Assembly: GCF_988242995.1 (NCBI RefSeq)
Contig: NZ_OZ547043.1
DNA: 64,000 nt
Reading direction: 5' to 3' (one strand)
Shown here: in pieces, positions 2,921-62,275 of the stretch
How positions within the stretch are numbered: position 1 is the stretch's first letter
Layout: each line of letters opens with the position of its first letter
Made by a program: the position numbers and the translations under genes
Notes under the pieces: model-generated
Database searches by the model: none
What the model saw: only the letters and a program-made list of their open reading frames with translations
Told to the model about the DNA's origin: nothing

Positions 2921-3100
2921 TACATACTCCTGTCAGGTGTGGTCACCGCGCGACGTATGCGCGGCTTGAATGTATAGCAAATGTTAACCTATGTCCGTTT
3001 GAAAAAAAACGAAAATCAATTTAACGAATGTCGGAAATAGGTAACCAGTTGCTGTTTCATAACATATGCTGCGCTCCGATAAATACTTATTCTCTGTTAT

Positions 3101-3967
3101 TCACTTTCCAATTAATTGAAATAAATATTGACCATACTGTGTTTTCTCCATAATCCTGGCCTCAGTCAGGACCTGCTCCGCAGTCAGCCATTTATTGCGC
3201 AAAGCTATTTCTTCTAAGCAAGCAACTTTATATCCTTGACGCTTTTCGATAGTATGAACAAATTGAGAAGCTTCAATAAGGCTATCATGTGTTCCCGTAT
3301 CCAACCAAGCGAACCCCCTTCCCAAGAGTTCTACATTAAGCATATCCCGCTCAAGATACATTTTATTTATTGAAGTGATTTCAAGCTCACCACGAGGAGA
3401 TGGTTTAACTTGCTTTGCAAAATCCACCACCTGATTATCATAGAAATAGAGTCCAGTTATGGCCCAATTAGATTTTGGTGTTTGTGGCTTCTCTTCGACA
3501 GAGAGCACCTTAAATGATTCGTCAAATTCTACAATGCCAAATCGTTCAGGATCCATAACCTGATAGCCAAAAACTGTAGCTCCTCTTTTTCTGGAAGCCA
3601 CCTGTTCCAGTTTGCGACCGAAACTTTGACCGAAGAAAATATTATCCCCTAAAACCAGGGCACATTCATCACCAGCGATGAACTCTTCACCAATAATAAA
3701 AGCCTGCGCCAACCCATCAGGACTTGGTTGAATAGCATATTGAAGGTTAATTCCAAACCGGGATCCGTCTCCTAGCAGGCGTTTATACGATGATAAGTCC
3801 TCGGGAGTAGAAATAAGAAGTATATCTTTTATCCCTGCCAGCATTAATACTGAAATAGGGTAATATACCATTGGCTTATCATAAATAGGTAGGAGCTGTT
3901 TTGATACCCCTCGAGTAATCGGATAAAGTCGGGTACCAGAACCTCCCGCTAATATAATTCCTTTCAT
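3101..3967 (-). CDS. rmlA: Glucose-1-phosphate thymidylyltransferase
   Basis: 288 aa; [46 protein letters not shown] is the RmlA/RfbA nucleotidyltransferase signature. Confidence 0.85.
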
Positions 3968-4111
3968 TGCTTACCTTCTCTATATAATCTTCAAATATTA
4001 TCGCATTAACTTTTAAGTAAATTTTAAAAATGCAGTGCAATAAACATTCAGTTTAAATAAGCTTGACATTAGAAATATCTCCAGCTTATTTACTTGTATT
4101 AAATGTCACAT

Positions 4112-4642
4112 TTAATCTAATTTTTTTAGGTATGTCGCTGGAGTGCCGCCTACTAATTCCTTTTCACCGACATCTTTTAGAACTACAGAATTTGCTGCAA
4201 CTATAGCTCCATTGTTAATAACAATAGGTCCCAAAATAACAGATCCAGTGGCCAATATAACATCGTTGCCAATAACAGGACGAAGTTCCTTGTTATATTT
4301 CATATCAAGTGTTTTTGCACCAATAGTGACATTTTGATATATAGTGCAGTTTTCACCTATACGCGCCGCACCGATAACTATGCCAAAGGTATGTGGTATG
4401 AAAAGTCCACCTTTAATCTCACATTCAGTTGCGATCTCAATGTTAAAAATGAGGACGTTTAAAAGTGAACAACATTTTGATATTCTTCTGAATCCTTTTT
4501 CTTTTAAAGAATAGGATGTCCTATATATTACATTGGGAATCAAACGAGGGCTAAAAATTCTAAAATAGTCTTTAAATTTAAAAGCAGATTCATTCCCAAT
4601 CAATTCTTTATATCTTTGAATATCTTGTTGTATATTTTTCAT
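4112..4642 (-). CDS. Hexapeptide-repeat O-acetyltransferase (CysE/LacA/WbbJ-like)
   Basis: 176 aa; left-handed beta-helix hexapeptide repeats (IGAARIGENCTIYQNVTIGAK, IGNDVILATGSVILGPIVINNGAIVAANSVV). Confidence 0.7.
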   Translation of the reverse strand: MKNIQQDIQRYKELIGNESAFKFKDYFRIFSPRLIPNVIYRTSYSLKEKGFRRISKCCSLLNVLIFNIEIATECEIKGGLFIPHTFGIVIGAARIGENCTIYQNVTIGAKTLDMKYNKELRPVIGNDVILATGSVILGPIVINNGAIVAANSVVLKDVGEKELVGGTPATYLKKLD

Positions 4643-5699
4643 TTTTTATTCCTGCGTATCCTGCTAAAAACACCAGATATAGCCAAAACATAGGGAAAAG
4701 GAAGGTTAGTTTAAGGCAGGGGAGCAGGCATAATAACATCAATCTAAGTGAGAATCGTGAATATTTTAGGAACAATACCAGCCATGATACACTAAGGATA
4801 CTGCCTAACCAAAAGCCAAAAACGATGAAATTACTTCCGAATAACGTCATATCAAAAAGAGACTGAAAATAGTCTGGTGCATTGTCATAATACCCAACCA
4901 TACCGTGGCCAATATTAAAAACAAGAGGGCTATCAAAGAATGATTTCATCAACTCAAGTTTATATGATGTGCTACCATCACTACCAGATGAAATATAAGA
5001 CATACGCCACATAATGTTTTGATATATTATCGGAGAAACCAGTACTAACGATATTAACCCGGTTGCGATCCACTTTAGTGTCAATCTACAGGTAAGAATA
5101 AAAAATAACATAACGCAGATAACAGAGAAAGTCGAACCGGATAACACCATACACATTAATGCTATATAACTTAGTAATGAGTTATTATTAGCTACAATAT
5201 ACCTCATCACTAATAATGTGACCATATGTATAGAGAAAATACTCGGTTCGGCAAATACTCCTGTTGCTCTGTAATCGAAACCGTCATAACTGCTACGGTG
5301 TGGAGGACCTAACAAGAACTTCCCATAATCGATATCCACATTAATGATTTTGAAAGCTAAATACTGCAACAGGAAAGTAAAAATGTGAAACTTGATGCAA
5401 AAATCGATCACCTTAAGCCAGTCACAGCTTTTAATTCTTTTTACACAATAGCTATAGATTGATGGTACTGTCAATGCATAAAAGCAGCATACCAAAGTAA
5501 AAATAAATATTTTATCCACTACGCCAAAGAATACATGAAAAATAAGCGATGTGAACGATACCAGAATAAATATCAACCCTTGCGATGAAACCTTACATTT
5601 ACCCTGTATAAACACCAGAAAAAAAACGCAAAACTGAATAATAAAAAAAACCGGACTAAAAATGAAAAGAGTACCAAAAAGAAAATATATATTAGCCAT
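4608..5699 (-). CDS. wzy: O-antigen polymerase
   Basis: 363-aa very hydrophobic, AT-rich, multi-spanning membrane protein with a large internal loop, located in an O-antigen cluster; no close sequence recognised, as is typical for Wzy. Confidence 0.55.
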   Translation of the reverse strand: MANIYFLFGTLFIFSPVFFIIQFCVFFLVFIQGKCKVSSQGLIFILVSFTSLIFHVFFGVVDKIFIFTLVCCFYALTVPSIYSYCVKRIKSCDWLKVIDFCIKFHIFTFLLQYLAFKIINVDIDYGKFLLGPPHRSSYDGFDYRATGVFAEPSIFSIHMVTLLVMRYIVANNNSLLSYIALMCMVLSGSTFSVICVMLFFILTCRLTLKWIATGLISLVLVSPIIYQNIMWRMSYISSGSDGSTSYKLELMKSFFDSPLVFNIGHGMVGYYDNAPDYFQSLFDMTLFGSNFIVFGFWLGSILSVSWLVLFLKYSRFSLRLMLLCLLPCLKLTFLFPMFWLYLVFLAGYAGIKNEKYTTRYSKI

Positions 5700-6669
5700 T
5701 TCTTTCCCTTTTTGAATAACCCTCTATATAATACATAGCCAAGACTAACTTGTAAAATATTGCTCTGATTTTAAATTTATTCCTATTGTCTAACTTATTA
5801 AGAACAACCCTTACAAATTTATTAAGTTTAATACTATTAGCGCAAGACAAAGCTACTCTAAGCACAGTTGACTTCATACTACCTTTCCGCTCAGCCTGGG
5901 GAAATAGCAATTTATCTACAATTTCAGGATGTTTCTTAACCAAAAGCGGTACTGAGTACCTTGCATAAGGAATCATTCTTTCACATGCCCTATCGAGGGT
6001 AGGGGTGTCGTTATCGTAGAGTAAAGCATCGCTACAAAAGAAAAACGGAACAGAGCTTAAACGAAGCCGCGCCCCAAATTCTTCATCCTCACAACCATAA
6101 TGCCGGAATGATTCATCGAACCCTTTCTGTGCTTCAAACTCGGATTTGCTAATCAGGAAAGCATCGCTTGCAAAGTAGCGATACTCAATTTTAACAGTTC
6201 CTTTATATCTATTCCCCAAATATCGGGAGTCAAAGTAGTGTAGGTAATTGCTGTCGCGGGTTAAATCTTGCCGACATCTGACATTAGCCCTTGCTACAAA
6301 AGGCTTCTCGCAGGACAAAATCATTGAATGCAGGCTATCAAGACAACCTTGCTGGAGCAAATTGTCTATGTCGACAAAAAATAACCATTCATTGCTTGCT
6401 GATTTCGCAGCTCTATTTCGAGAAAAGGCGCGACCTTCATTTATTTCATTACGTAAGAACACTAACCGCCATTCGCGCTCATTAAATTTTTCAGAAAAGG
6501 CAATAGTTGTGTCTTCCAAATTCACCTCAGAACCGTCATCGATGATGATAAGTTCAATATTCTTTAGTATATTCTTTTGTCCATGAGTATTAGCGAGCAG
6601 AGCTGAGATGAAAGTTTCTACTTTTGATGAGCTACCGAGAACAGGGCTAATAATGCTAATCATTTGCAC
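5692..6669 (-). CDS. Family 2 glycosyltransferase
   Basis: 325 aa; N-terminal ISIISPVLGSS...ELIIIDDGS matches the GT-A nucleotide-sugar binding and DxD region. Confidence 0.75.
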   Translation of the reverse strand: MQMISIISPVLGSSSKVETFISALLANTHGQKNILKNIELIIIDDGSEVNLEDTTIAFSEKFNEREWRLVFLRNEINEGRAFSRNRAAKSASNEWLFFVDIDNLLQQGCLDSLHSMILSCEKPFVARANVRCRQDLTRDSNYLHYFDSRYLGNRYKGTVKIEYRYFASDAFLISKSEFEAQKGFDESFRHYGCEDEEFGARLRLSSVPFFFCSDALLYDNDTPTLDRACERMIPYARYSVPLLVKKHPEIVDKLLFPQAERKGSMKSTVLRVALSCANSIKLNKFVRVVLNKLDNRNKFKIRAIFYKLVLAMYYIEGYSKRERNG

Positions 6670-7918
6670 GTTCCATTAAATATTTTTTAGTTACAGTTAA
6701 ATACCAATAGATTGAAACTAATATTGAAAAGAAAAGAGAAATATATAATGCAATAAAGATGCTTGGTATCGGCGCAGTAATAGCAGAGACTTTCAATGCG
6801 CTATAGATGCTCAGACATAATAAAAATACAAGACACCATTTAATGGTGTAATAGTAGTAACTCTTTGATGCAAGGTTAGCTGCGTTGATCAAATTATCGA
6901 CAGCAAAAAATGGCAACAAAAAGACCAGAATATTATAATAATTTGCCGATGTGACATAGTCATGGCCGAAAACAAATGTAAAGATATATGGTGTAAATGG
7001 CTTTAACGAAAATGAGAATAACGAAAAAGCAGTAAACATTATTATGGATAAGACAATAAGATTTCTGTTGAAAATTTTCCACTTCTTGTTTTTGTATAAA
7101 AGGATGGGGGCCAAAACCTGTATCAATATTAAGGTTACTGAAGCTGTATTCTCATTAATCTGTGATGCAGCACTATATATACCATAATCAACTGGTGAAA
7201 TGTTACCTTTCAGTAAGAATCTGTCAATTTTCATAAATAATGCATAGGCTACAACCCCTCCCCAGATGAAAAAACTGCGTTTTAACAGGAAGCCTATATC
7301 ATTTAGTCTAACAAGACTTATTCTGGGGAACTTACAAATTGAACAACAGTACATGACTATCGCAACAAAAATGCCCTCCAGTACCCATGGCAATGCAAGG
7401 AACTTGATATCGAAATTTATCACTATAAATAAGTAATATAGTGTTAGTATCCTGATAATGCAGCCAAAGATCTGGATGATACCTGAGAGGTATAATTTCC
7501 CTTCAGATTGCCATTTTGCAAAGCCTACCATCAATGGCTCTCGTGCCAAGAGAGTAACGGACGAAAATAGCAAGTAATACCTTACAATCTCACTTTCAGC
7601 TGTAATTGCGAGGATTACACTGACAGTAGCGACTAATGATGATACAGATAATCTTGCAAAAAAAATTGTATTACAATAAATCAATTTCTTGCGTAATGAA
7701 TAGCGCGATAACTGAGGGACAACTGATTCTGACCCGCACATCCAAGTTAGTGACATTAAAATATTTGAAAAAGTAAATGCATATTGCCAAATGCCAAACT
7801 GCTCAATTGGAAGCGCTTTTGAGATAAGATGGTTAGCATAAATAGCACTAATAATCTGTACAAATCGCTCAAACAACAGGACAAGCAATCCCGCAATAAT
7901 TGATTTATTCACGAACAC
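6656..7918 (-). CDS. wzx: O-antigen flippase
   Basis: 420-aa polytopic membrane protein (about 12 hydrophobic segments) of the polysaccharide-transporter type, located in the O-antigen cluster. Confidence 0.7.
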   Translation of the reverse strand: MFVNKSIIAGLLVLLFERFVQIISAIYANHLISKALPIEQFGIWQYAFTFSNILMSLTWMCGSESVVPQLSRYSLRKKLIYCNTIFFARLSVSSLVATVSVILAITAESEIVRYYLLFSSVTLLAREPLMVGFAKWQSEGKLYLSGIIQIFGCIIRILTLYYLFIVINFDIKFLALPWVLEGIFVAIVMYCCSICKFPRISLVRLNDIGFLLKRSFFIWGGVVAYALFMKIDRFLLKGNISPVDYGIYSAASQINENTASVTLILIQVLAPILLYKNKKWKIFNRNLIVLSIIMFTAFSLFSFSLKPFTPYIFTFVFGHDYVTSANYYNILVFLLPFFAVDNLINAANLASKSYYYYTIKWCLVFLLCLSIYSALKVSAITAPIPSIFIALYISLFFSILVSIYWYLTVTKKYLMERAND

Positions 7919-8903
7919 CTTCCGGTGAGATTATTTTTTTCACCCATTGCTGTAAAGAATATTGTTCTCTATTTTTGTAATTAACATTCGGTGCGTTAAT
8001 AAAATTCTCAGGTACTATGACCTGATGTCTTTTTACTACGCAGATCATATTAGGGTCATAAAAATCGTACTTTTTTATGTCTTCATTCGTGGTAATAATT
8101 TTTTTATTTAACCCGATGCATTCTATTGTTCGCATTGTCAGACCGCGCTGCCTTGGATGATGAATATCGATGATAATTTCAGAGCACTTCATCATTTCAA
8201 CAACTTCAGATTGTGATAATGGTTCAAATTCTACGTCTGTATTTATTTTTTTTCCGCTTAATAAATTCTTCAGTTTAAAAATAATTTCATTCTGAAAATA
8301 AAAGAATGTATAAGCATTAATGTCTTTAATATTTCTTACTTCAGCAGTAATGCAATTGACCAAATCAACGCGATCTGAATGAGCTGTACCGATAAAACAA
8401 AGATCGTATTTTAGCGAATGCTCATGCTTATTGTCAAAACGCGGCGAATAAAACAGCGGAAGAAATGTTACTCCCCATTTTTCAGCATCATCACGTTCAA
8501 AGGTGAAAACCGAATCAAACTGATTTATTATTCTTTTAACTTTGGGTTTGTTATTGACCGAATCCCACAAATACATAATGAATTTACAGTGTTCATTTTT
8601 TACTTTAACGGTTTTTTTTATGGCCTGTAAAATTTCATGATCAATTGCTTCAGGATTTAAAATAAATACATTATCGATTTTTTTGTTGACAATTTGCCGT
8701 AGTAATTTTTTATAATAACTTGAGTTATACTTTTTAATCAAAATACTACAACCTAACCTTAGCAATGATTTATAAATAGCATTATTGCTCGGCCGCTCAT
8801 CCCAATAGATAACGTCATTAGTTAATTCTAATTCTTTGACTATTTCTTTTTCATAATTAAAAAACTTGGGAGAAATAAACAATACTGTATTTTTGTACCC
8901 CAT
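7905..8903 (-). CDS. Hypothetical protein, candidate glycosyltransferase of unrecognised family
   Basis: 332-aa soluble ORF, AT-rich, overlaps wzx start by 14 nt (operonic). No motif I can assign; context suggests the second sugar transferase of the O-unit. Confidence 0.45.
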   Translation of the reverse strand: MGYKNTVLFISPKFFNYEKEIVKELELTNDVIYWDERPSNNAIYKSLLRLGCSILIKKYNSSYYKKLLRQIVNKKIDNVFILNPEAIDHEILQAIKKTVKVKNEHCKFIMYLWDSVNNKPKVKRIINQFDSVFTFERDDAEKWGVTFLPLFYSPRFDNKHEHSLKYDLCFIGTAHSDRVDLVNCITAEVRNIKDINAYTFFYFQNEIIFKLKNLLSGKKINTDVEFEPLSQSEVVEMMKCSEIIIDIHHPRQRGLTMRTIECIGLNKKIITTNEDIKKYDFYDPNMICVVKRHQVIVPENFINAPNVNYKNREQYSLQQWVKKIISPEGVRE

Positions 8904-8904
8904 T

Positions 8905-9720
8905 TTATCTTCCCTGAGATTTTTTGAATTCTTTTATCATATCCACTAAATCATTCAATACATTTTTATAATGATGTGGGACTATTGAGTTAGTTTTTTG
9001 CATCGTGATAACAGGAAATGTTTCGCATGTATCATTCTTGTGCCACTGTATATTACAACCTGTTTCAGATATTAAAATGTCAGCGATGGATTTTGCTGAA
9101 ACATTATATCCAGATGCAATGTTATAAATATCTCCGGGTGAAGTTATAGATTCTGCTAGCTTATACATGACGGCAACCACATCATCTACCGATACATAAT
9201 CCTTCTCGTAGTCAGAGCTAACATACATATCGACATGATTGTTATTGATTGCATTTTTTATTATTTGCGGAAGGAATAACGGGCTATTTAGTGCGAGTCC
9301 ATAAACATTTGATGGTCGGACGACCACAACGTTCTTTTTACTTCTTAGACATAACTCTTCAGCAACCAATTTTGTCAAATTGAAAAGCTTGCGACCATCA
9401 TTGTGACAAATTTTTAGATCTGAATTTTCTGCAGAATCTCTGGAGTTCAAATATACACGAGTGGAAGAAATGTAGACTAATTTCTGGAAATTAGCTTGTG
9501 TAAGTATTACTTTTAGCTTATTGACATTTGCATCCACAACATTATAGGCATCACTTTTGCAATCGCCATAGCCTGCGCAATAAAAGACGGTACCAAGGTC
9601 AATTTCTTTGTTATAAAGATAGTCTCTGTCAGGGCAGAAACATTCTTTATTCATTGATTCTAAAAATGTTACCATATGTGAACCAATGAAACCTGAACTA
9701 CCAACGACTGTATACTTCAT
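8905..9720 (-). CDS. NAD(P)-dependent sugar epimerase/reductase (SDR family), candidate dTDP-4-keto-6-deoxyhexose 4-reductase
   Basis: 271 aa; N-terminal Rossmann motif VVGSSGFIGSHMV; lies between the rmlC-like gene and the orphan ORF; does not resemble canonical RmlD. Confidence 0.55.
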   Translation of the reverse strand: MKYTVVGSSGFIGSHMVTFLESMNKECFCPDRDYLYNKEIDLGTVFYCAGYGDCKSDAYNVVDANVNKLKVILTQANFQKLVYISSTRVYLNSRDSAENSDLKICHNDGRKLFNLTKLVAEELCLRSKKNVVVVRPSNVYGLALNSPLFLPQIIKNAINNNHVDMYVSSDYEKDYVSVDDVVAVMYKLAESITSPGDIYNIASGYNVSAKSIADILISETGCNIQWHKNDTCETFPVITMQKTNSIVPHHYKNVLNDLVDMIKEFKKSQGR

Positions 9721-9782
9721 AATACTATAGCCTTTTGCTCTATGTATTAATAATGACAGGAAGCTAATTTAAACTGTTATGC

Positions 9783-10325
9783 TTATAAGCTAGCTTCTTT
9801 AAATTCTGAAAAACTAATTAACGCGTTGTCTTTAGATGACATAATTGGCATGTCTATCGGCCATTGTATATTCAGTTCTTTGTCATTCCAGATTATCCCC
9901 CCTTCATCGGTAGGATCATAGAAGTCTGTGCATTTGTAATGGAAATCCGCATACTCACTTAATACACAAAAACCATGTGCAAATCCAGGTGGGATATAGA
10001 TTTGATTATTTTTATCCCCAGAAAGTATAACACCTACATGCTTTCCAAAAGACGAAGATCCAGGTCTTAAATCAACAGCCACATCAAAAACTTCTCCACT
10101 GATGACACTTACTAATTTACCTTGAGGATTATTTTTTTGAAAATGTAAACCTCGAAGCACATTTCTTGCTGAGCGTGATCGATTATCTTGTACAAATGCC
10201 TCAGTTATTCCTATGTCGTGATATTTCTTCTGATGCCATGCTTCCAAAAAGAAACCACGAGAGTCACCAAAGACTTTTGGCTCAATGATTACACAACCAG
10301 CAAGTGGAGTCTCAATTACCTTCAT
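9783..10325 (-). CDS. rmlC: dTDP-4-dehydrorhamnose 3,5-epimerase family protein
   Basis: 180 aa; cupin-fold RmlC motifs EPKVFGDSRGFF, NVLRGLHFQ, GFAHGF. Confidence 0.8.
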   Translation of the reverse strand: MKVIETPLAGCVIIEPKVFGDSRGFFLEAWHQKKYHDIGITEAFVQDNRSRSARNVLRGLHFQKNNPQGKLVSVISGEVFDVAVDLRPGSSSFGKHVGVILSGDKNNQIYIPPGFAHGFCVLSEYADFHYKCTDFYDPTDEGGIIWNDKELNIQWPIDMPIMSSKDNALISFSEFKEASL

Positions 10326-10396
10326 AATTATAAACCTTGTATTATATTTTTTAAATTTGCTAATTTTTGATACAATTTAGCTACCTTTATCAGTTA

Positions 10397-11479
10397 CTAA
10401 CGCATCTTGTAGTTCTGCTCAATCCAGGTTTGGTACGCCCCACTTTTGATATTTTCAACCCATGAGGTGTTTGCCAGATACCATTCAACCGTTTTGCGAA
10501 TCCCACTTTCGAACGTCTCTTGCGGTTTCCAACCGAGCTCACGGCTGATTTTATCCGCATCGATCGCGTATCGACGGTCATGGCCTGGACGATCGGCAAC
10601 ATAGGTGATTTGTTCACGGTATGACACTGCTTTAGGTACGATCTCATCCAGCAGGTCGCAGATGGTATGTACAACATCGAGATTTTTCTTCTCGTTATGG
10701 CCACCGATGTTGTAGGTCTCACCAGGGATTCCTTTCGTCACCACGGTATATAACGCACGGGCATGGTCTTCAACATAGAGCCAGTCGCGAATCTGATCGC
10801 CTTTACCATAAATGGGTAACGATTTCCCTTCGAGAGCATTGAGAATAACCAAGGGAATCAACTTTTCAGGGAAATGGTATGGGCCATAGTTATTCGAACA
10901 GTTGGTCACCATTGTTGGAAGACCGTATGTACGCAGCCAGGCACGAACGAGATGGTCGCTGGAGGCTTTTGAAGCCGAATAAGGACTACTCGGCGCATAG
11001 GCGGTTTGTTCCGTGAAGAGAGGAAGAATACTCCCCTGCGCAACCTCATCCGGATGCGGTAAATCCCCATAAACTTCATCAGTAGAGATGTGATGGAAGC
11101 GGAATGTCGCCTTTCGCGCACTATCCAGTGAGGACCAGTATTGACGGGCTGTTTCTAAAAGAACATAAGTACCCACAATATTCGTTTCAATAAATGCAGC
11201 AGGGCCTGTAATTGAACGGTCAACATGGCTTTCAGCAGCCAGGTGCATCACTGCATCCGGCTGATGCTGAGAAAAAATTCGCGCCATTGCAGCAGCATCG
11301 CAAATATCCGCATGTTCAAAAACATAGCGTTCAGAATCAGAAACATCAGCAAGTGATTCCAGGTTTCCGGCGTACGTTAATTTATCGACATTAACAACAC
11401 TATCCTGCGTATTATTTATAATGTGACGAACTACAGCAGAACCAATAAATCCTGCGCCACCAGTAACAAGTATCTTCAC
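10397..11479 (-). CDS. rmlB: dTDP-glucose 4,6-dehydratase
   Basis: 360 aa; [43 protein letters not shown] matches RmlB/RfbB almost residue-for-residue. Confidence 0.92.
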
Positions 11480-11553
11480 TTATTTATTCCATATAACTTC
11501 AGAGCATGCTGTGAAATAAGCGGCTCTTAGGTTGATTAATAGAGGTGTTAATG

Positions 11554-11592
11554 CACGCTACCGCCCCTGGCTTTACAGCTACCAGAGCACTA
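11554..11592 (-). promoter_or_regulatory. JUMPstart element with ops site (RfaH-dependent antitermination) upstream of the O-antigen operon
   Basis: Minus-strand reading is cagtgctctggtagctgtaaagccaggggcGGCGGTAGCGTG; the ops core GGCGGTAGCGTG is the reverse complement of 11554-11565. Confidence 0.8.
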
Positions 11593-11850
11593 CATGCATG
11601 TCTACGATGTGACGAGCGTTACCCACTCGCGCTAAACCCGAAAAATTCAAACGCTAATTGTCTTACCAATCCGCTCTGGAAACAAGGAAAATCCTGGAAA
11701 ACTTTGACTAAAATCCTATTGCTAACTCGTTGTTATTCTGATTGTTTATATAAAACAACGGCAGGAATATTCGCAACAAATTACTTTCGCCACGAATCTT
11801 CACTGTCGTTATAATTTTCTTATCAACCGTTACATCCGGTCAGATTTTCA

Positions 11851-23108: not shown

Positions 23109-24332
23109 TTATCCCCGAATATCATTTATAAATTGACGTAACACGTTCTCTTTATCGAGCGTGCGTTCGGCATATTCACGTGCCACCGTGTTGTGTTTGG
23201 GCAGCAGGAGCGCCTGACGGATCCCCGCCACCAGCGCCTCGACCGATTCCGGTTCTACGCAAACCGCAATGCCCGGAAAGGTTTCGCAAAGCTGCCCCAG
23301 TTCTGTGTGGGCTTCTGCGGTAATCACCGCGTTACCGCCTACCGCCAGAATATTGGTCAGTTTCGACGGCAATACGGCATCTGCCGCGCCGCGTTTTTGC
23401 ACCACCAGATGGCAATCGCCCATCTTCAGCAGTGCGGGTAAAGCGTCATACGATTGCAGCGGGAAAAATTGCATGTTGCGCAGTCCACGCTGCTGCGCCA
23501 TTTTTTCCAGCCGCGCTTTGCCGCCGCCTTGCCCGACAATGGCAAAAATCAGCGGTTCATCGCGCAGGCGATCGGCAGCTTCAATAACGTTTTCCAGCCC
23601 CTGCTTTTCACCAATATTGCCGGAGTAAAGAATGATTTTTTTGTTATCCGGCAGGCCAAGCTGGTTACGAAGGGCATCAACATCGGCATCTGCAACATGC
23701 TGAAAACGGGCAATTTCCGACCAGTTGGGGAAGAAAATGACGTTTTCCGCCGCCACGCCTTTTTCGATGGCTTTATTCATCATCGAACGCGAAATCGTGG
23801 AGACGTTATCGACGTTATGCAATCCGCTACGTTCGAACGCCGTTGCCAGCTGTGCCACTTTGCCGCCTTTGCCTTTTCCGGCAAGGCCCAGCCCCAGCAT
23901 GGCGTCCACTTCGTAATCCTGAATATGCAGCACGGTACGCGCACCAGAGAGTTTCGCCAGCAGGCGCATTCCCGGCGTGCAAAACAGCGTTGGCACCACG
24001 CCGATAATGCGATCCGGCTTCCAGCGACGTTGCGCCATCAGAGGAAAGAAACTGCTGACGGCAAAACTGCTGAGATGTAACAGGCGTTTCAGGGTGCTCG
24101 GCTGTTTTGGCACGTACAGCGGGCAGCGCCACACCGTGGCGGCCCCCTCTTCTCGTTTGTAGCGCCAGGCGGAATAGTTCTCGCCCACCTGCCACTGCGG
24201 GTAGTAAGGCGGTGCGGTAATAACCCGCACCTCATGACCTTGTGCCGCCAGCCATTCCACCATCTCGCCGGTGTATTTGCCGATACCGGTTAACTCCGGC
24301 GAGTAGTTAATGCCGTAGACCAGTATTTTCAT
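23109..24332 (-). CDS. wcaI: Colanic acid glycosyltransferase WcaI (GT4)
   Basis: 407 aa; [39 protein letters not shown]. Confidence 0.9.
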
Positions 24333-36093: not shown

Positions 36094-36132
36094 CACGCTA
36101 CCGCCCCTGGCTTTTTAGCTACCAATACACTG
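36094..36132 (-). promoter_or_regulatory. JUMPstart element with ops site in the colanic acid operon leader
   Basis: Minus-strand reading is cagtgtattggtagctaaaaagccaggggcGGCGGTAGCGTG; near-identical to the O-antigen JUMPstart at 11554-11592. Confidence 0.8.
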
Positions 36133-36572: not shown

Positions 36573-38156
36573 ATGGAATGGATTGCCGATCCGTCTATCT
36601 GGGCCGGGTTAATCACGCTGATTGTGATCGAACTGGTCCTCGGCATTGATAACCTGGTCTTTATTGCCATCCTCGCCGAAAAACTACCGCCGAAGCAGCG
36701 CGACCGCGCACGGGTTACCGGGCTGTTGCTGGCGATGTTAATGCGCCTGTTACTGCTGGCGTCAATCTCCTGGCTGGTCACCCTGACGCAACCGCTGTTC
36801 AGCTTCCGCTCGTTTACCTTTAGCGCCCGCGACTTAATCATGCTGTTTGGTGGTTTCTTCCTGTTGTTCAAAGCCACGATGGAGCTGAACGAACGGCTGG
36901 AAGGGAAAGACAGCAATAATCCCACACAACGCAAAGGTGCGAAGTTCTGGGGGGTGGTGACACAAATTGTGGTACTGGACGCCATCTTCTCTCTCGACTC
37001 AGTGATTACCGCCGTCGGGATGGTCGACCATTTACTGGTCATGATGGCCGCCGTGGTTATCGCTATCAGCCTGATGTTGATGGCCAGCAAGCCGTTAACG
37101 CAATTTGTTAACAGTCACCCGACCATCGTTATTCTCTGCTTAAGCTTCCTGTTGATGATTGGCTTTAGCCTGGTGGCAGAAGGTTTCGGCTTCGTCATTC
37201 CGAAAGGCTACCTGTACGCTGCTATTGGTTTCTCGGTGATGATCGAGGCGCTCAATCAGTTGGCTATCTTTAACCGGCGACGTTTTCTTTCCGCTAACCA
37301 GACGCTGCGCCAGCGGACTACCGAAGCGGTAATGCGCCTGCTTAGCGGGCAAAAAGAAGATGCGGAACTGGACGCCGAAACCGCGTCCATGCTGGTGGAT
37401 CATGGTAACCAGCAGATCTTTAATCCGCAGGAACGGCGGATGATTGAGCGGGTACTTAATCTTAACCAGCGTACCGTCAGCAGCATTATGACGTCGCGCC
37501 ACGATATTGAGCATATCGATCTCAACGCGCCGGAAGAAGAAATCCGCCAGTTACTGGAGCGAAACCAGCATACGCGGCTGGTGGTTACCGACGGTGATGA
37601 CGCAGAAGATTTGCTCGGTGTTGTTCACGTTATCGACCTGCTACAACAGTCACTGCGCGGCGAACCGCTCAACCTGCGGGTGTTGATTCGCCAGCCGCTG
37701 GTGTTCCCGGAAACCTTGCCGTTGTTACCTGCCCTGGAGCAGTTCCGTAATGCCCGCACACACTTTGCTTTTGTGGTGGATGAGTTTGGCTCGGTGGAAG
37801 GGATTGTGACATTAAGTGACGTCACTGAAACCATTGCCGGTAACTTACCGAACGAAGTGGAAGAGATCGACGCCCGCCATGATATTCAGAAGAATGCGGA
37901 CGGTTCCTGGACGGCGAATGGTCATATGCCGCTGGAAGATCTGGTGCAATATGTGCCGTTGCCGCTGGATGAAAAACGTGAATATCACACCATTGCCGGG
38001 CTATTGATGGAATATTTGCAACGTATTCCAAAACCTGGCGAAGAAGTTCAGGTGGGGGATTATTTGCTTAAAACGTTGCAGGTGGAAAGCCATCGCGTGC
38101 AGAAGGTGCAGATTATTCCGCTGCGTAAGGATGGCGAGATGGAGTACGAGGTGTGA
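36573..38156 (+). CDS. yegH: TerC-family integral membrane protein with CBS/CorC domains
   Basis: Conserved start [39 protein letters not shown] at the internal Met (ORF track begins at 36507), giving 527 aa. Confidence 0.85.
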
Positions 38157-46076: not shown

Positions 46077-47429
46077 GTGTTTATTGGTTTTGATTACGGT
46101 ACAGCAAACTGTTCAGTGGCGGTCATGCGCGACGGTAAGCCGCAATTACTGAAAATGGAAAACGACAGCACGCTGCTGCCTTCAATGCTTTGCGCGCCAA
46201 CGCGTGAAGCGGTAAGCGAATGGCTGTACCGCCATCATGATGTTCCGGCAGACGACGATGAAACGCAGGCGCTGTTGCGTCGGGCGATTCGTTATAACCG
46301 CGAAGAAGATATCGATGTTACGGCGAAAAGCGTGCAGTTCGGTCTTTCCTCACTGGCACAGTACATTGATGATCCAGAAGAAGTGTGGTTTGTGAAATCA
46401 CCAAAATCGTTCCTCGGTGCCAGCGGCTTAAAACCGCAGCAGGTAGCGCTGTTTGAGGATCTGGTCTGCGCAATGATGTTGCACATTCGCCAGCAGGCGC
46501 AGGCACAGCTGCCAGAAGCGATTACTCAGGCGGTGATTGGTCGCCCTATCAACTTCCAGGGGCTTGGCGGCGATGAAGCAAACACCCAGGCGCAGGGGAT
46601 TCTGGAACGCGCGGCGAAGCGTGCCGGGTTTAAGGATGTGGTATTCCAGTACGAGCCGGTCGCGGCTGGGCTGGATTACGAAGCCACCTTGCAGGAAGAA
46701 AAACGGGTGCTGGTGGTGGATATCGGCGGTGGTACGACTGACTGTTCATTGCTGCTGATGGGGCCGCAGTGGCGTTCGCGTCTCGATCGTGAAGCCAGCC
46801 TGCTGGGTCACAGTGGTTGCCGTATTGGCGGTAACGATCTGGATATCGCGCTGGCGTTTAAAAACCTGATGCCGTTACTGGGCATGGGTGGCGAAACCGA
46901 AAAAGGCATCGCCCTGCCTATTCTGCCGTGGTGGAATGCGGTTGCCATCAACGACGTTCCTGCACAGAGTGATTTCTACAGTAGTGCCAACGGTCGTCTG
47001 CTTAACGACCTGGTACGCGATGCCCGCGAACCGGAAAAAGTGGCCCTGTTACAGAAAGTCTGGCGTCAGCGTTTAAGCTATCGCCTGGTACGTAGCGCAG
47101 AAGAGAGCAAAATTGCGCTTTCAAGCGTAGCGGAAACCCGCGCCTCACTGCCGTTTATCAGCGATGAACTGGCTACGCTGATTAGCCAGCAAGGGCTGGA
47201 AAGCGCCCTCAGCCAGCCACTGGCGCGGATTCTGGAACAGGTGCAACTGGCGCTGGATAACGCCCAGGAAAAACCGGATGTTATCTATCTGACCGGCGGT
47301 AGCGCCCGTTCACCGCTGATTAAAAAAGCGCTGACAGAACAGTTGCCGGGCATTCCGATTGCAGGTGGCGATGACTTTGGCTCCGTCACCGCCGGGCTCG
47401 CACGCTGGGCGGAAGTGGTGTTTCGTTAA
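46077..47429 (+). CDS. yegD: Hsp70/actin-fold ATPase YegD
   Basis: Conserved N-terminus FIGFDYGTANCSVAVMRDGKP begins at an in-frame GTG (46077), giving 450 aa; ORF track starts at 46014. Confidence 0.85.
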   Translation: MFIGFDYGTANCSVAVMRDGKPQLLKMENDSTLLPSMLCAPTREAVSEWLYRHHDVPADDDETQALLRRAIRYNREEDIDVTAKSVQFGLSSLAQYIDDPEEVWFVKSPKSFLGASGLKPQQVALFEDLVCAMMLHIRQQAQAQLPEAITQAVIGRPINFQGLGGDEANTQAQGILERAAKRAGFKDVVFQYEPVAAGLDYEATLQEEKRVLVVDIGGGTTDCSLLLMGPQWRSRLDREASLLGHSGCRIGGNDLDIALAFKNLMPLLGMGGETEKGIALPILPWWNAVAINDVPAQSDFYSSANGRLLNDLVRDAREPEKVALLQKVWRQRLSYRLVRSAEESKIALSSVAETRASLPFISDELATLISQQGLESALSQPLARILEQVQLALDNAQEKPDVIYLTGGSARSPLIKKALTEQLPGIPIAGGDDFGSVTAGLARWAEVVFR

Positions 47430-60875: not shown

Positions 60876-62275
60876 AGTTCTGGCGACCCGGTATTACCGG
60901 CAAACTGTTTCTGGCGATTTTCGCCACCTGCATTGTCTTGCTGATCAGTATGCACTGGGCGGTGCGTATCAGTTTTGAGCGTGGCTTTATTGATTACATC
61001 AAGCATGGTAATGAACAGCGATTACAACTGTTAAGTGATGCGCTTGGCGAGCAGTATGCGCAGCATGGCAACTGGCGCTTCCTGCGCAACAATGATCGCT
61101 TTGTCTTTCAGATCCTGCGTTCATTTGAACACGAAAATTCGGAAGATAAACCCGGCCCGGGTATGCCGCCGCACGGCTGGCGTACCCAGTTCTGGGTGGT
61201 TGATCAAAACAACAAAGTGCTGGTTGGTCCGCGAGCGCCGATTCCACCTGACGGTACACGGCGACCCATTCTGGTCAACGGTGCGGAAGTGGGTGCGGTG
61301 ATTGCCTCCCCTGTTGAGCGACTGACCCGCAATACTGATATCAATTTCGATAAACAACAGCGGCAAACCAGCTGGCTGATTGTCGCCCTGGCTACGTTAC
61401 TCGCGGCACTCGCCACCTTTCTGCTGGCGCGTGGTCTGTTGGCCCCGGTCAAACGGCTGGTGGACGGCACGCACAAACTGGCGGCGGGCGATTTCACTAC
61501 CCGCGTGACACCCACCAGTGAAGATGAACTGGGCAAACTGGCGCAAGACTTCAACCAGCTTGCCAGCACGCTGGAGAAAAACCAGCAAATGCGGCGCGAT
61601 TTTATGGCCGATATTTCTCACGAACTGCGTACGCCATTAGCGGTGCTGCGCGGTGAACTGGAAGCCATTCAGGATGGCGTGCGTAAATTCACGCCGGAGA
61701 CGGTGGCGTCTTTACAGGCGGAGGTCGGTACACTGACCAAACTGGTTGACGATCTCCATCAGTTGTCGATGTCTGATGAAGGCGCTCTCGCCTATCAAAA
61801 AGCACCGGTAGATTTGATCCCACTGCTGGAAGTAGCGGGCGGCGCATTTCGCGAACGATTCGCCAGCCGTGGCCTGAAACTGCAATTTTCCCTGCCAGAC
61901 AGTATTACCGTATTTGGCGATCGCGACCGTTTAATGCAGTTATTCAATAACTTACTGGAAAACAGCCTGCGCTACACTGACAGCGGCGGTAGCCTGAAAA
62001 TCTCTGCCGAGCAGCACGACAAAACGGTGCGACTGACCTTTGCCGACAGCGCGCCGGGCGTCAGTGACGATCAGCTACAAAAATTGTTTGAACGTTTTTA
62101 TCGCACCGAAGGTTCCCGCAACCGAGCCAGCGGCGGTTCCGGGCTGGGGCTGGCGATTTGCCTGAACATTGTTGAAGCACATAATGGTCGCATTATTGCT
62201 GCCCATTCGCCTTTTGGCGGGGTAAGCATTACAGTAGAGTTACCGCTGGAACGGGATTTACAGAGAGAAGTATGA
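60872..62275 (+). CDS. baeS: Envelope-stress sensor histidine kinase
   Basis: 467 aa; two TM segments, HAMP region, H-box ISHELRTPL, ATPase G-box GGSGLGLAI; overlaps the mdtD stop by 4 nt. Confidence 0.92.

Follow-up and report, generated by a model that had tools for sequence, protein, structure and literature searches.

Which sugar is handled by the product of a gene inside an O-antigen operon is the question raised by this locus. The gene is a 332-codon open reading frame (ORF) on the minus strand at 7905-8903 of a 64,000 nucleotide stretch of contig NZ_OZ547043.1 (RefSeq assembly GCF_988242995.1), the whole of which is called the window here. A first-pass annotation, made from the sequence alone, had called the ORF unassignable and proposed it as a missing glycosyltransferase (GT) of an unrecognised family. 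The missing transferase is now supported, as the product has a predicted GT-B fold, matches a family hidden Markov model (HMM) over its full length and would be the second transferase of a three-sugar O-unit. The unrecognised family did not hold, as NCBIfam model NF053598 covers the ORF and RefSeq names its product (WP_000540836.1, the exact protein present in Escherichia coli S88) "WaaS/CpsH family glycosyltransferase". Our best reading, which we consider probable, is that the ORF encodes an inverting dTDP-6-deoxy-L-talose:HexNAc-PP-undecaprenol transferase of the S88-type "O45" antigen (HexNAc, N-acetylhexosamine; PP, pyrophosphate).

Family and fold of the ORF product

The product matches NF053598 with 295.2 bits (E 8.4e-88; the curated cutoff is 60 bits), residues 6-325 aligning to positions 1-317 of the 318 in the profile, and it is almost certainly a GT of the WaaS/CpsH family. 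No Pfam match was obtained at E<=0.01 and nothing usable at E<=10 (Glycos_transf_1/GT4, Glycos_transf_2, Glyco_trans_1_2, DUF3880/CgeB), nor was there any PF00535 match that would indicate a GT2 domain of GT-A type; at E<=10, sub-threshold matches to DUF3880 (13 bits) and Glyco_trans_1_2 (17.5 bits) were seen only in two homologs, from the O45 and O66 clusters described below. The profile search which had been proposed as a check was thus negative in Pfam and positive in NCBIfam, and the structure prediction proposed with it returned a GT-B fold. The Pfam scan also bore out the earlier statement that the cluster otherwise holds a single recognisable GT, the GT2 at 5692-6669. A word-indexed search found 660 homologs of the ORF, 0 of them with a precomputed Pfam domain, and an exhaustive HMMER search found 7,112 representatives at 50% identity with E<=1e-3 (2,203 with E<=1e-30). 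Given these homologs, and the annotation of the ORF as a coding sequence (CDS) in 36 complete E. coli genomes, it is not a chance reading frame. RefSeq names are inconsistent across identical and homologous proteins, which appear as "hypothetical protein", "CgeB family protein", "DUF3880 domain-containing protein" or "WaaS/CpsH family glycosyltransferase".

A sequence search of the PDB with the ORF product gave a chance match only and no close solved structure. The AlphaFold2 model, built from a 38-sequence alignment (pLDDT 93.5, pTM 0.90), has the features of a GT-B enzyme: two Rossmann-like alpha/beta domains, an interdomain cleft and a C-terminal helix which crosses back. Its best fold matches are all true GTs, and its GT-B neighbours are mostly UDP-Glc or UDP-GlcNAc enzymes (Glc, glucose; GlcNAc, N-acetylglucosamine). 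Because of the full-length family match and the confident model, the ORF product is, on its predicted structure, a GT-B glycosyltransferase of a family recognised by NCBI, without a Pfam model and without a close solved structure. Its composition is as had been described, AT-rich and free of membrane segments: the ORF has the lowest GC content of the cluster (30.6%, versus 50.4% for the window) and the product has no hydrophobic segment (maximum Kyte-Doolittle 19-residue mean 0.73, versus 2.3-2.7 for the wzx and wzy products). The protein is basic (predicted isoelectric point 8.9) and most likely soluble or peripheral.

Gene cluster and donor sugar

Positions 3000-11600 of the window are 100% identical to the E. 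coli S88 chromosome, and the whole cluster is present in 36 of 5,426 complete E. coli genomes. This corresponds to the variant-O45 O-antigen cluster that Plainvert et al. (2007) published for S88, as cited in later literature; O45:K1:H7 is the S88 meningitis clone, and a review reports the O-antigen cluster as a key virulence determinant of the neonatal-meningitis clone (Liu et al., citing Plainvert 2007). The RefSeq gene order, all on the minus strand, is galF, rfbB, rfbC, a gene for a 271-aa NAD-dependent epimerase/dehydratase, the ORF, wzx ("S88 variant O45 family"), GT2, wzy, a serine-type O-acetyltransferase gene, rfbA, gnd, ugd and wzzB. The genes on which the argument rests are as follows (SDR, short-chain dehydrogenase/reductase; 6dTal, 6-deoxytalose).

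7905-8903, minus strand: the ORF, WaaS/CpsH-family GT-B glycosyltransferase (332 aa), predicted dTDP-6-deoxy-L-talose:HexNAc-PP-undecaprenol 6-deoxytalosyltransferase
8905-9720, minus strand: 271-aa short SDR, predicted Tll-type dTDP-6-deoxy-L-lyxo-4-hexulose 4-reductase giving dTDP-6-deoxy-L-talose (Epimerase-family match, no RmlD match)
9783-10325, minus strand: rfbC (rmlC), dTDP-4-dehydrorhamnose 3,5-epimerase (TIGR01221, 247.6 bits; RefSeq rfbC)
10397-11479, minus strand: rfbB (rmlB), dTDP-glucose 4,6-dehydratase (NF007490, 773 bits; RefSeq)
3101-3967, minus strand: rfbA (rmlA), glucose-1-phosphate thymidylyltransferase (TIGR01207, 504 bits; RefSeq)
4112-4642, minus strand: hexapeptide (serine-type) O-acetyltransferase, predicted 6dTal O-acetylase (Hexapep and EpsC/CysE-like matches; 43% identical to the O45 homolog)
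4608-5699, minus strand: wzy, O-antigen polymerase (RefSeq; multiple hydrophobic segments)
5692-6669, minus strand: GT2, predicted beta-glucosyltransferase acting on 6dTal (PF00535; 41% identical to the classic O45 GT2)
6656-7918, minus strand: wzx, flippase (RefSeq; hydrophobic profile)

The cluster encodes RmlA, RmlB, RmlC and the short SDR, and rmlD was found neither by Pfam and equivalog HMM scans nor in the RefSeq annotation. With the SDR read as a Tll-like reductase, rfbA, rfbB and rfbC would make up a complete dTDP-6-deoxy-L-talose pathway alongside the ORF. The same set recurs in other serogroups. A DNA search with the SDR gene across the 5,426 E. coli genomes returned four cluster types, namely S88-type, O109, classic Shiga toxin-producing E. 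coli O45 (strain 2011C-4251) and O66 (NCTC9066); a DNA search with the ORF itself found S88-type and O109 only, and the O45 and O66 homologs emerged from the SDR search followed by protein comparison. In all four types rfbC is followed by a 270-277-aa SDR (47-67% mutual identity, about 23% to true RmlD; the S88 SDR is 49-58% identical to those of O45, O66 and O109), rmlD is missing, and a WaaS/CpsH protein is encoded (33-47% mutual identity, 276-295 bits against NF053598). The comparison with typed serogroups that had been suggested earlier therefore yielded full-length homologs of the ORF product in O109 (WP_021547028.1, 47% identical), classic O45 (WP_000865877.1, 36%, 287 bits) and O66 (WP_126315325.1, 37%, 276 bits), each in a cluster which, like that of S88, joins rfbC and a Tll-like SDR with an acetyl- or acyltransferase gene. 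The last two are called "hypothetical protein" in RefSeq; by sequence they are unrecognised members of the WaaS/CpsH family and could be renamed. They differ from the ORF in that the gene is placed after the acetyltransferase, and in O45 the predicted acceptor is N-acetylfucosamine (FucNAc)-PP-undecaprenol, with WbhQ as the initiating transferase.

The O45 unit consists of FucNAc, 2-O-acetyl-6-deoxytalose (6d-L-Tal2Ac) and Glc (PMC12093740), and O66 and O45rel are reported to contain 6dTal by the title of Jann 1995. All four components attributable to "Glc-6dTal2Ac" are common to S88 and O45, with identities of 49% for the SDR, 41% for the GT2, 43% for the acetyltransferase and 36% for the ORF product. 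The GT2s are poorly kept among the four types (41% between S88 and O45, 23-24% for O66, no match in O109). The S88-type cluster has neither wbhQ, the initiating transferase gene of classic O45, nor the genes for FucNAc synthesis, which fits a GlcNAc-initiated variant.

At the end of the classic O45 cluster of strain 2011C-4251 (locus L008, 17512-18626), the interval from rfbA to gnd holds pieces of a gene for a family 1 glycosyl hydrolase, together with small hypothetical ORFs; these look like remnants of a past insertion or a recombination junction.

The family outside E. coli

Thirteen further loci were sampled. A Tll-like or Tle-like SDR lies beside the GT gene or in the same cluster in 12 of the 13, and an acetyl- or acyltransferase does so in all 13. 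The clusters of Buttiauxella (GT 62% identical to the ORF product) and Kluyvera (57%) are syntenic with that of S88. In seven loci (Shewanella, Bacillus, Aeromonas, Dendrosporobacter, Ghiorsea and two unassigned contigs), whose GTs are about 37-40% identical to the ORF product, the GT gene directly follows a gene for a 376-378-aa SDR, itself preceded by a hexapeptide acetyltransferase gene in five of the seven. These longer SDRs (58-97% mutual identity) resemble the WbpP/WbgU 4-epimerases, with the epimerase match split at about residues 138-175. The experimentally characterised dTDP-L-rhamnose 4-epimerase Tle of Mycobacterium abscessus is likewise WbpP-like with an insertion at 128-165 (PMC11549994), and close relatives of the Bacillus protein are named "dTDP-L-rhamnose 4-epimerase" by JGI. 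rmlABCD is in the same locus in Bacillus and Dendrosporobacter. Tll and Tle are both known routes to dTDP-6-deoxy-L-talose (PMC11549994). The presence of one or other SDR in 12 of the 13 loci means that the GT family is associated with both routes, and with an acetyltransferase, in a cassette that recurs across phyla.

An FnlB/CapF-like role for the 377-378-aa SDRs, which would supply the L-PneNAc (N-acetyl-L-pneumosamine) donor, was considered and rejected, there being no match to FnlB/WbjC equivalogs; the WbpP/WbgU-like character with a Tle-like insertion and the JGI name also speak against it. At one locus (L014, 7794-8950) the Tle-like SDR is called as 286 aa and the frame is open from an upstream ATG, so that the gene call and not the gene is truncated. 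In Proteus mirabilis and Morganella morganii both the GT and the SDR have close homologs, with identities of 72% for the GT (partial) and 78-89% for the SDR; sequence similarity suggests that the S88-type 6dTal module is horizontally shared among Enterobacterales. In the polysaccharide cluster of Aliarcobacter (L013, 10594-15893), genes for a 686-aa AAA_15 ATPase and a 356-aa RVT_1 reverse transcriptase, along with a PemK toxin and small ORFs, separate the GT and acetyltransferase genes from the initiating transferase gene, in what looks like a defence-island insertion.

Conserved motifs and relation to WaaS

Two conserved stretches of the product bear on how donor and acceptor might be bound.

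8559-8567, minus strand: codons for W113-D114-S115, an N-terminal-domain motif that is nearly invariant (every member of the 38-sequence alignment has it)
8085-8168, minus strand: codons for residues 246-273 (D..HP.Q.GLTMRTIE......KK.ITTN), a C-terminal-domain motif common to K-12 WaaS

In GT-B enzymes the nucleotide sugar is usually bound by the C-terminal domain and the acceptor by the N-terminal domain. Within residues 246-273, D246, Q252, G254, T256, R258, E261, K268, T271 and N273 do not vary in the 13 sequences compared, WaaS among them (alignment; BLASTP), and this segment is presumed to form the nucleotide-sugar donor site. W113-D114-S115 is at least 90% conserved in a second alignment and absent from K-12 WaaS, and is a candidate acceptor-side or catalytic-base motif.

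WaaS of K-12 (RfaS, b3629) resembles the ORF product in matching NF053598 over its full length (179 bits, against 295 for the ORF) and in its C-terminal motif D..Q.G.T.R..E......K..T.N. It differs in that its gene belongs to the waa core operon while the ORF lies in an O-antigen cluster, and in that its acceptor is Kdo (3-deoxy-D-manno-oct-2-ulosonic acid) on lipid A-core while the predicted acceptor here is undecaprenyl-PP-linked HexNAc. WaaS is described as the rhamnosyl transferase of lipopolysaccharide (LPS) glycoforms with a third Kdo (PMC6358824), and L-rhamnose (L-Rha) and 6-deoxy-L-talose differ at C4 only (PMC3989065). As the C-terminal motif is kept and the N-terminal motifs are not, the pattern, given the usual domain roles, fits a common dTDP-6-deoxy-L-hexose donor and different acceptors.

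Acceptor and proposed O-unit assembly

Gene fusions and neighbour order speak to the acceptor. Fusions are rare: three representatives were found, which join Bac_transf (a small initiating phosphoglycosyltransferase) to the GT, Bac_transf to SDR and GT, and GT to SDR. In Aeromonas- and Shewanella-type loci the GT gene is followed by genes for a 314-335-aa SDR, Bac_transf and a WbpM/PglF-like dehydratase, a set which resembles the FucNAc/QuiNAc-initiating module of classic O45 (QuiNAc, N-acetylquinovosamine). Fusions and neighbour order fit a second-step enzyme which acts on the first lipid-linked HexNAc.

We propose the following scheme, in which the donor sugar, acceptor, linkage and inverting mechanism of the ORF product are all predicted. 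No initiating transferase is encoded in the cluster, and GlcNAc-PP-undecaprenol is therefore presumed to come from WecA, whose gene lies elsewhere. RmlA, RmlB, RmlC and the adjacent Tll-like reductase would supply dTDP-beta-6-deoxy-L-talose, from which the ORF product would transfer 6-deoxy-L-talose, with inversion, to GlcNAc-PP-undecaprenol as the second step of the O-unit. The GT2 would then add glucose, the hexapeptide acetyltransferase would O-acetylate the talose, and Wzx and Wzy would flip and polymerise the unit.

The predicted reaction has partial precedents. WbbL-type GT2s would be alike in donor class (dTDP-6-deoxy-L-hexose), acceptor (lipid-PP-GlcNAc), position as second step and inversion, yet WbbL is a GT2 with the GT-A fold while the ORF product is GT-B with no GT2 HMM match. 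GT-B enzymes of GT4 type (PimA, BshA, WaaG, PglA, GumK) are 9-13% identical to the ORF product, which has no Glycos_transf_1 match and, on reading the sequence, no GT4 E-x7-E motif at E261; GT4 enzymes retain configuration, whereas the reaction here is predicted to be inverting. The talosyltransferases in the literature searched are only mycobacterial Gtf1 and a rhizobial GDP-6dTal enzyme. Gtf1/GtfA, the glycopeptidolipid 6-deoxytalosyltransferase, is by description similar in using dTDP-6-deoxy-L-talose and in that the talose is later O-acetylated, and differs in its acceptor, the D-allo-Thr of a lipopeptide (PMC11549994).

Alternative explanations

Several points weigh against a 6-deoxytalosyltransferase. 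WaaS shares only about 20-25% identity with the ORF product and lacks both the N-terminal WDS motif and a second one, G172-T-x-H175-S (GTxHS). All source names for the 271-aa SDR are generic and it matched no equivalog model, so that its assignment as Tll comes from context. The Aliarcobacter locus has no Tll- or Tle-like gene within 9 kb of the GT gene, and the GT fusions could be gene-calling artefacts in metagenome contigs. For O109, the literature gave no confirmation of 6dTal in the polysaccharide, only mentions in reference lists, and for "O45rel" the search likewise turned up nothing beyond such mentions. Gene content suggests that the S88 O-antigen is Glc-6dTal2Ac-GlcNAc, the structure reported for O45rel. 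The possibility of identity to a characterised O-antigen GT, raised in the first-pass annotation, stands as far as the annotated S88 product goes, to which the protein is identical; no published biochemical characterisation or genetic test of it, or of any O-antigen member of the family, was found, nor any in vitro assay for the family at large. Finally, WbbL-type GT2s are alpha-1,3-rhamnosyltransferases acting on GlcNAc-PP-lipid, which means that the roles of the two transferases could be swapped.

Such a swap is the strongest of three rivals, all of which we consider less likely than the 6-deoxytalosyltransferase reading. The GT2 (5692-6669) would be the 6-deoxytalosyl transferase on GlcNAc-PP-undecaprenol and the ORF product a glucosyltransferase onto 6dTal, which we regard as unlikely. 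Besides the example of WbbL, which uses dTDP-L-Rha (PMC11549994), the swap can draw on the UDP-Glc and UDP-GlcNAc enzymes among the fold neighbours, and the presence of both GTs in S88 and O45 is compatible with either order, as these share the Glc-6dTal part. However, it is the WaaS/CpsH protein and not the GT2 that is kept in all four E. coli clusters of Tll type, and across phyla the same protein directly adjoins Tll-like or Tle-like genes. WaaS, the only functionally described relative, is called a rhamnosyltransferase, and fusion to an initiating transferase fits a second-step enzyme. A GT2 which inverts UDP-alpha-Glc to beta-Glc also fits the O45 structure.

We give still less weight to the proposal that the ORF product is, like WaaS, an L-rhamnosyltransferase, with the adjacent SDR a divergent RmlD and an O-unit that contains L-rhamnose in place of 6-deoxy-L-talose. 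The shared family, the trunk of rfbB, rfbC and rfbA from which both pathways start, and the lack of a specific functional annotation for the SDR would all allow this; the SDR, on the other hand, matches no rmlD equivalog model and is about 23% identical to bona fide RmlD, and classic O45, whose unit has 6dTal2Ac and no Rha, offers no candidate 4-reductase apart from the 49% identical ortholog of this SDR. S88 also cross-reacts as O45, which is reflected in the RefSeq name "S88 variant O45". Least probable of all, and only a slight possibility, is a non-GT with a GT-B-like fold that modifies the O-unit in some other way; examples would be a CgeB-like protein, a 2-epimerase of sugar nucleotides, or a transferase of pyruvyl or glycerophosphate groups. 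Against it, only true GTs are among the best fold matches, and a unit of three sugars calls for two GTs besides the initiating one, of which the cluster encodes just one apart from the ORF product. The only substituent of the O45 unit is the O-acetyl accounted for by the hexapeptide acetyltransferase, and WaaS has been assigned a transferase role.

Start sites, variants and other features of the cluster

The ORF runs from an ATG (8903), preceded by AGGGAAG and lying 1 nt past the TAA of the upstream SDR gene, to a TAA (7905). With wzx starting at its annotated GTG (7918), the two genes share 14 nt; length and overlap are as first described, where the strand had gone unstated. At the annotated wzx start, a Shine-Dalgarno-like GGAAGG directly abuts the start codon. 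A second in-frame GTG at 7912 is, on reading the sequence, better spaced from it (about 5 nt), and for this reason may be the real start, in which case the overlap would be 8 nt and not 14.

Two of the 36 S88-type genomes, those of strain 3359 (a blood isolate) and strain EC21Z-063, carry a 998-nt copy of the ORF, 1 nt shorter; in strain 3359 (locus L020, 301-1298) the annotation splits it into two CDSs, 301-603 and 627-1298. In these copies either the transferase has been knocked out by a natural frameshift or a homopolymer was misread in sequencing. In strain NR3736, a human isolate, IS1 interrupts wzy in an otherwise identical S88-type cluster (locus L019, 2168-2865), which predicts a semi-rough LPS phenotype with a single O-unit.

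The operon leader carries a further element.

11558-11565, minus strand: ops element GGCGGTAG upstream of rfbB, between galF and rfbB, which marks an RfaH-dependent operon leader (exact match)

The element is as defined in PMC6358824. Five further exact octamers of this kind (GGCGGTAG) lie in the window, at 23339-23346, 36098-36105, 36684-36691 (minus strand), 47295-47302 and 61985-61992 (plus strand). The total of six compares with 1.5 expected, and six were reached in 1 of 100 shuffles. Some of the extra copies could belong to further operons under RfaH control, the colanic acid cluster for example, and others could be there by chance.

Significance

Since the gene, the cluster and the family name can all be found in the literature and in public annotation, the ORF is an ordinary, previously annotated O-antigen gene and not a new kind of system. 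What the analysis adds is the prediction of the donor sugar, the O45 and O66 homologs as unrecognised members of the family, and the cassette of acetyltransferase, SDR and GT across phyla. A wider proposal, for which we see the chances as evenly balanced, is that the core WaaS/CpsH clade, with thousands of members in Proteobacteria, Firmicutes and other phyla, is a dedicated inverting GT-B family for dTDP-6-deoxy-L-talose (more broadly, for dTDP-6-deoxy-L-hexoses), which acts on the first undecaprenyl-PP-linked HexNAc and moves together with Tll or Tle and an O-acetyltransferase as one mobile cassette. If so, the core clade would mark, at the sequence level, bacteria with acetylated 6-deoxytalose in their surface glycans. 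The donor-sugar prediction made here is testable and extends to a large family of which most members are still called "hypothetical protein". Knowing the enzyme which installs 6-deoxytalose would help serodiagnostics and the glycoengineering of conjugate antigens of O45 type, where work on classic O45 has already begun (PMC12093740).

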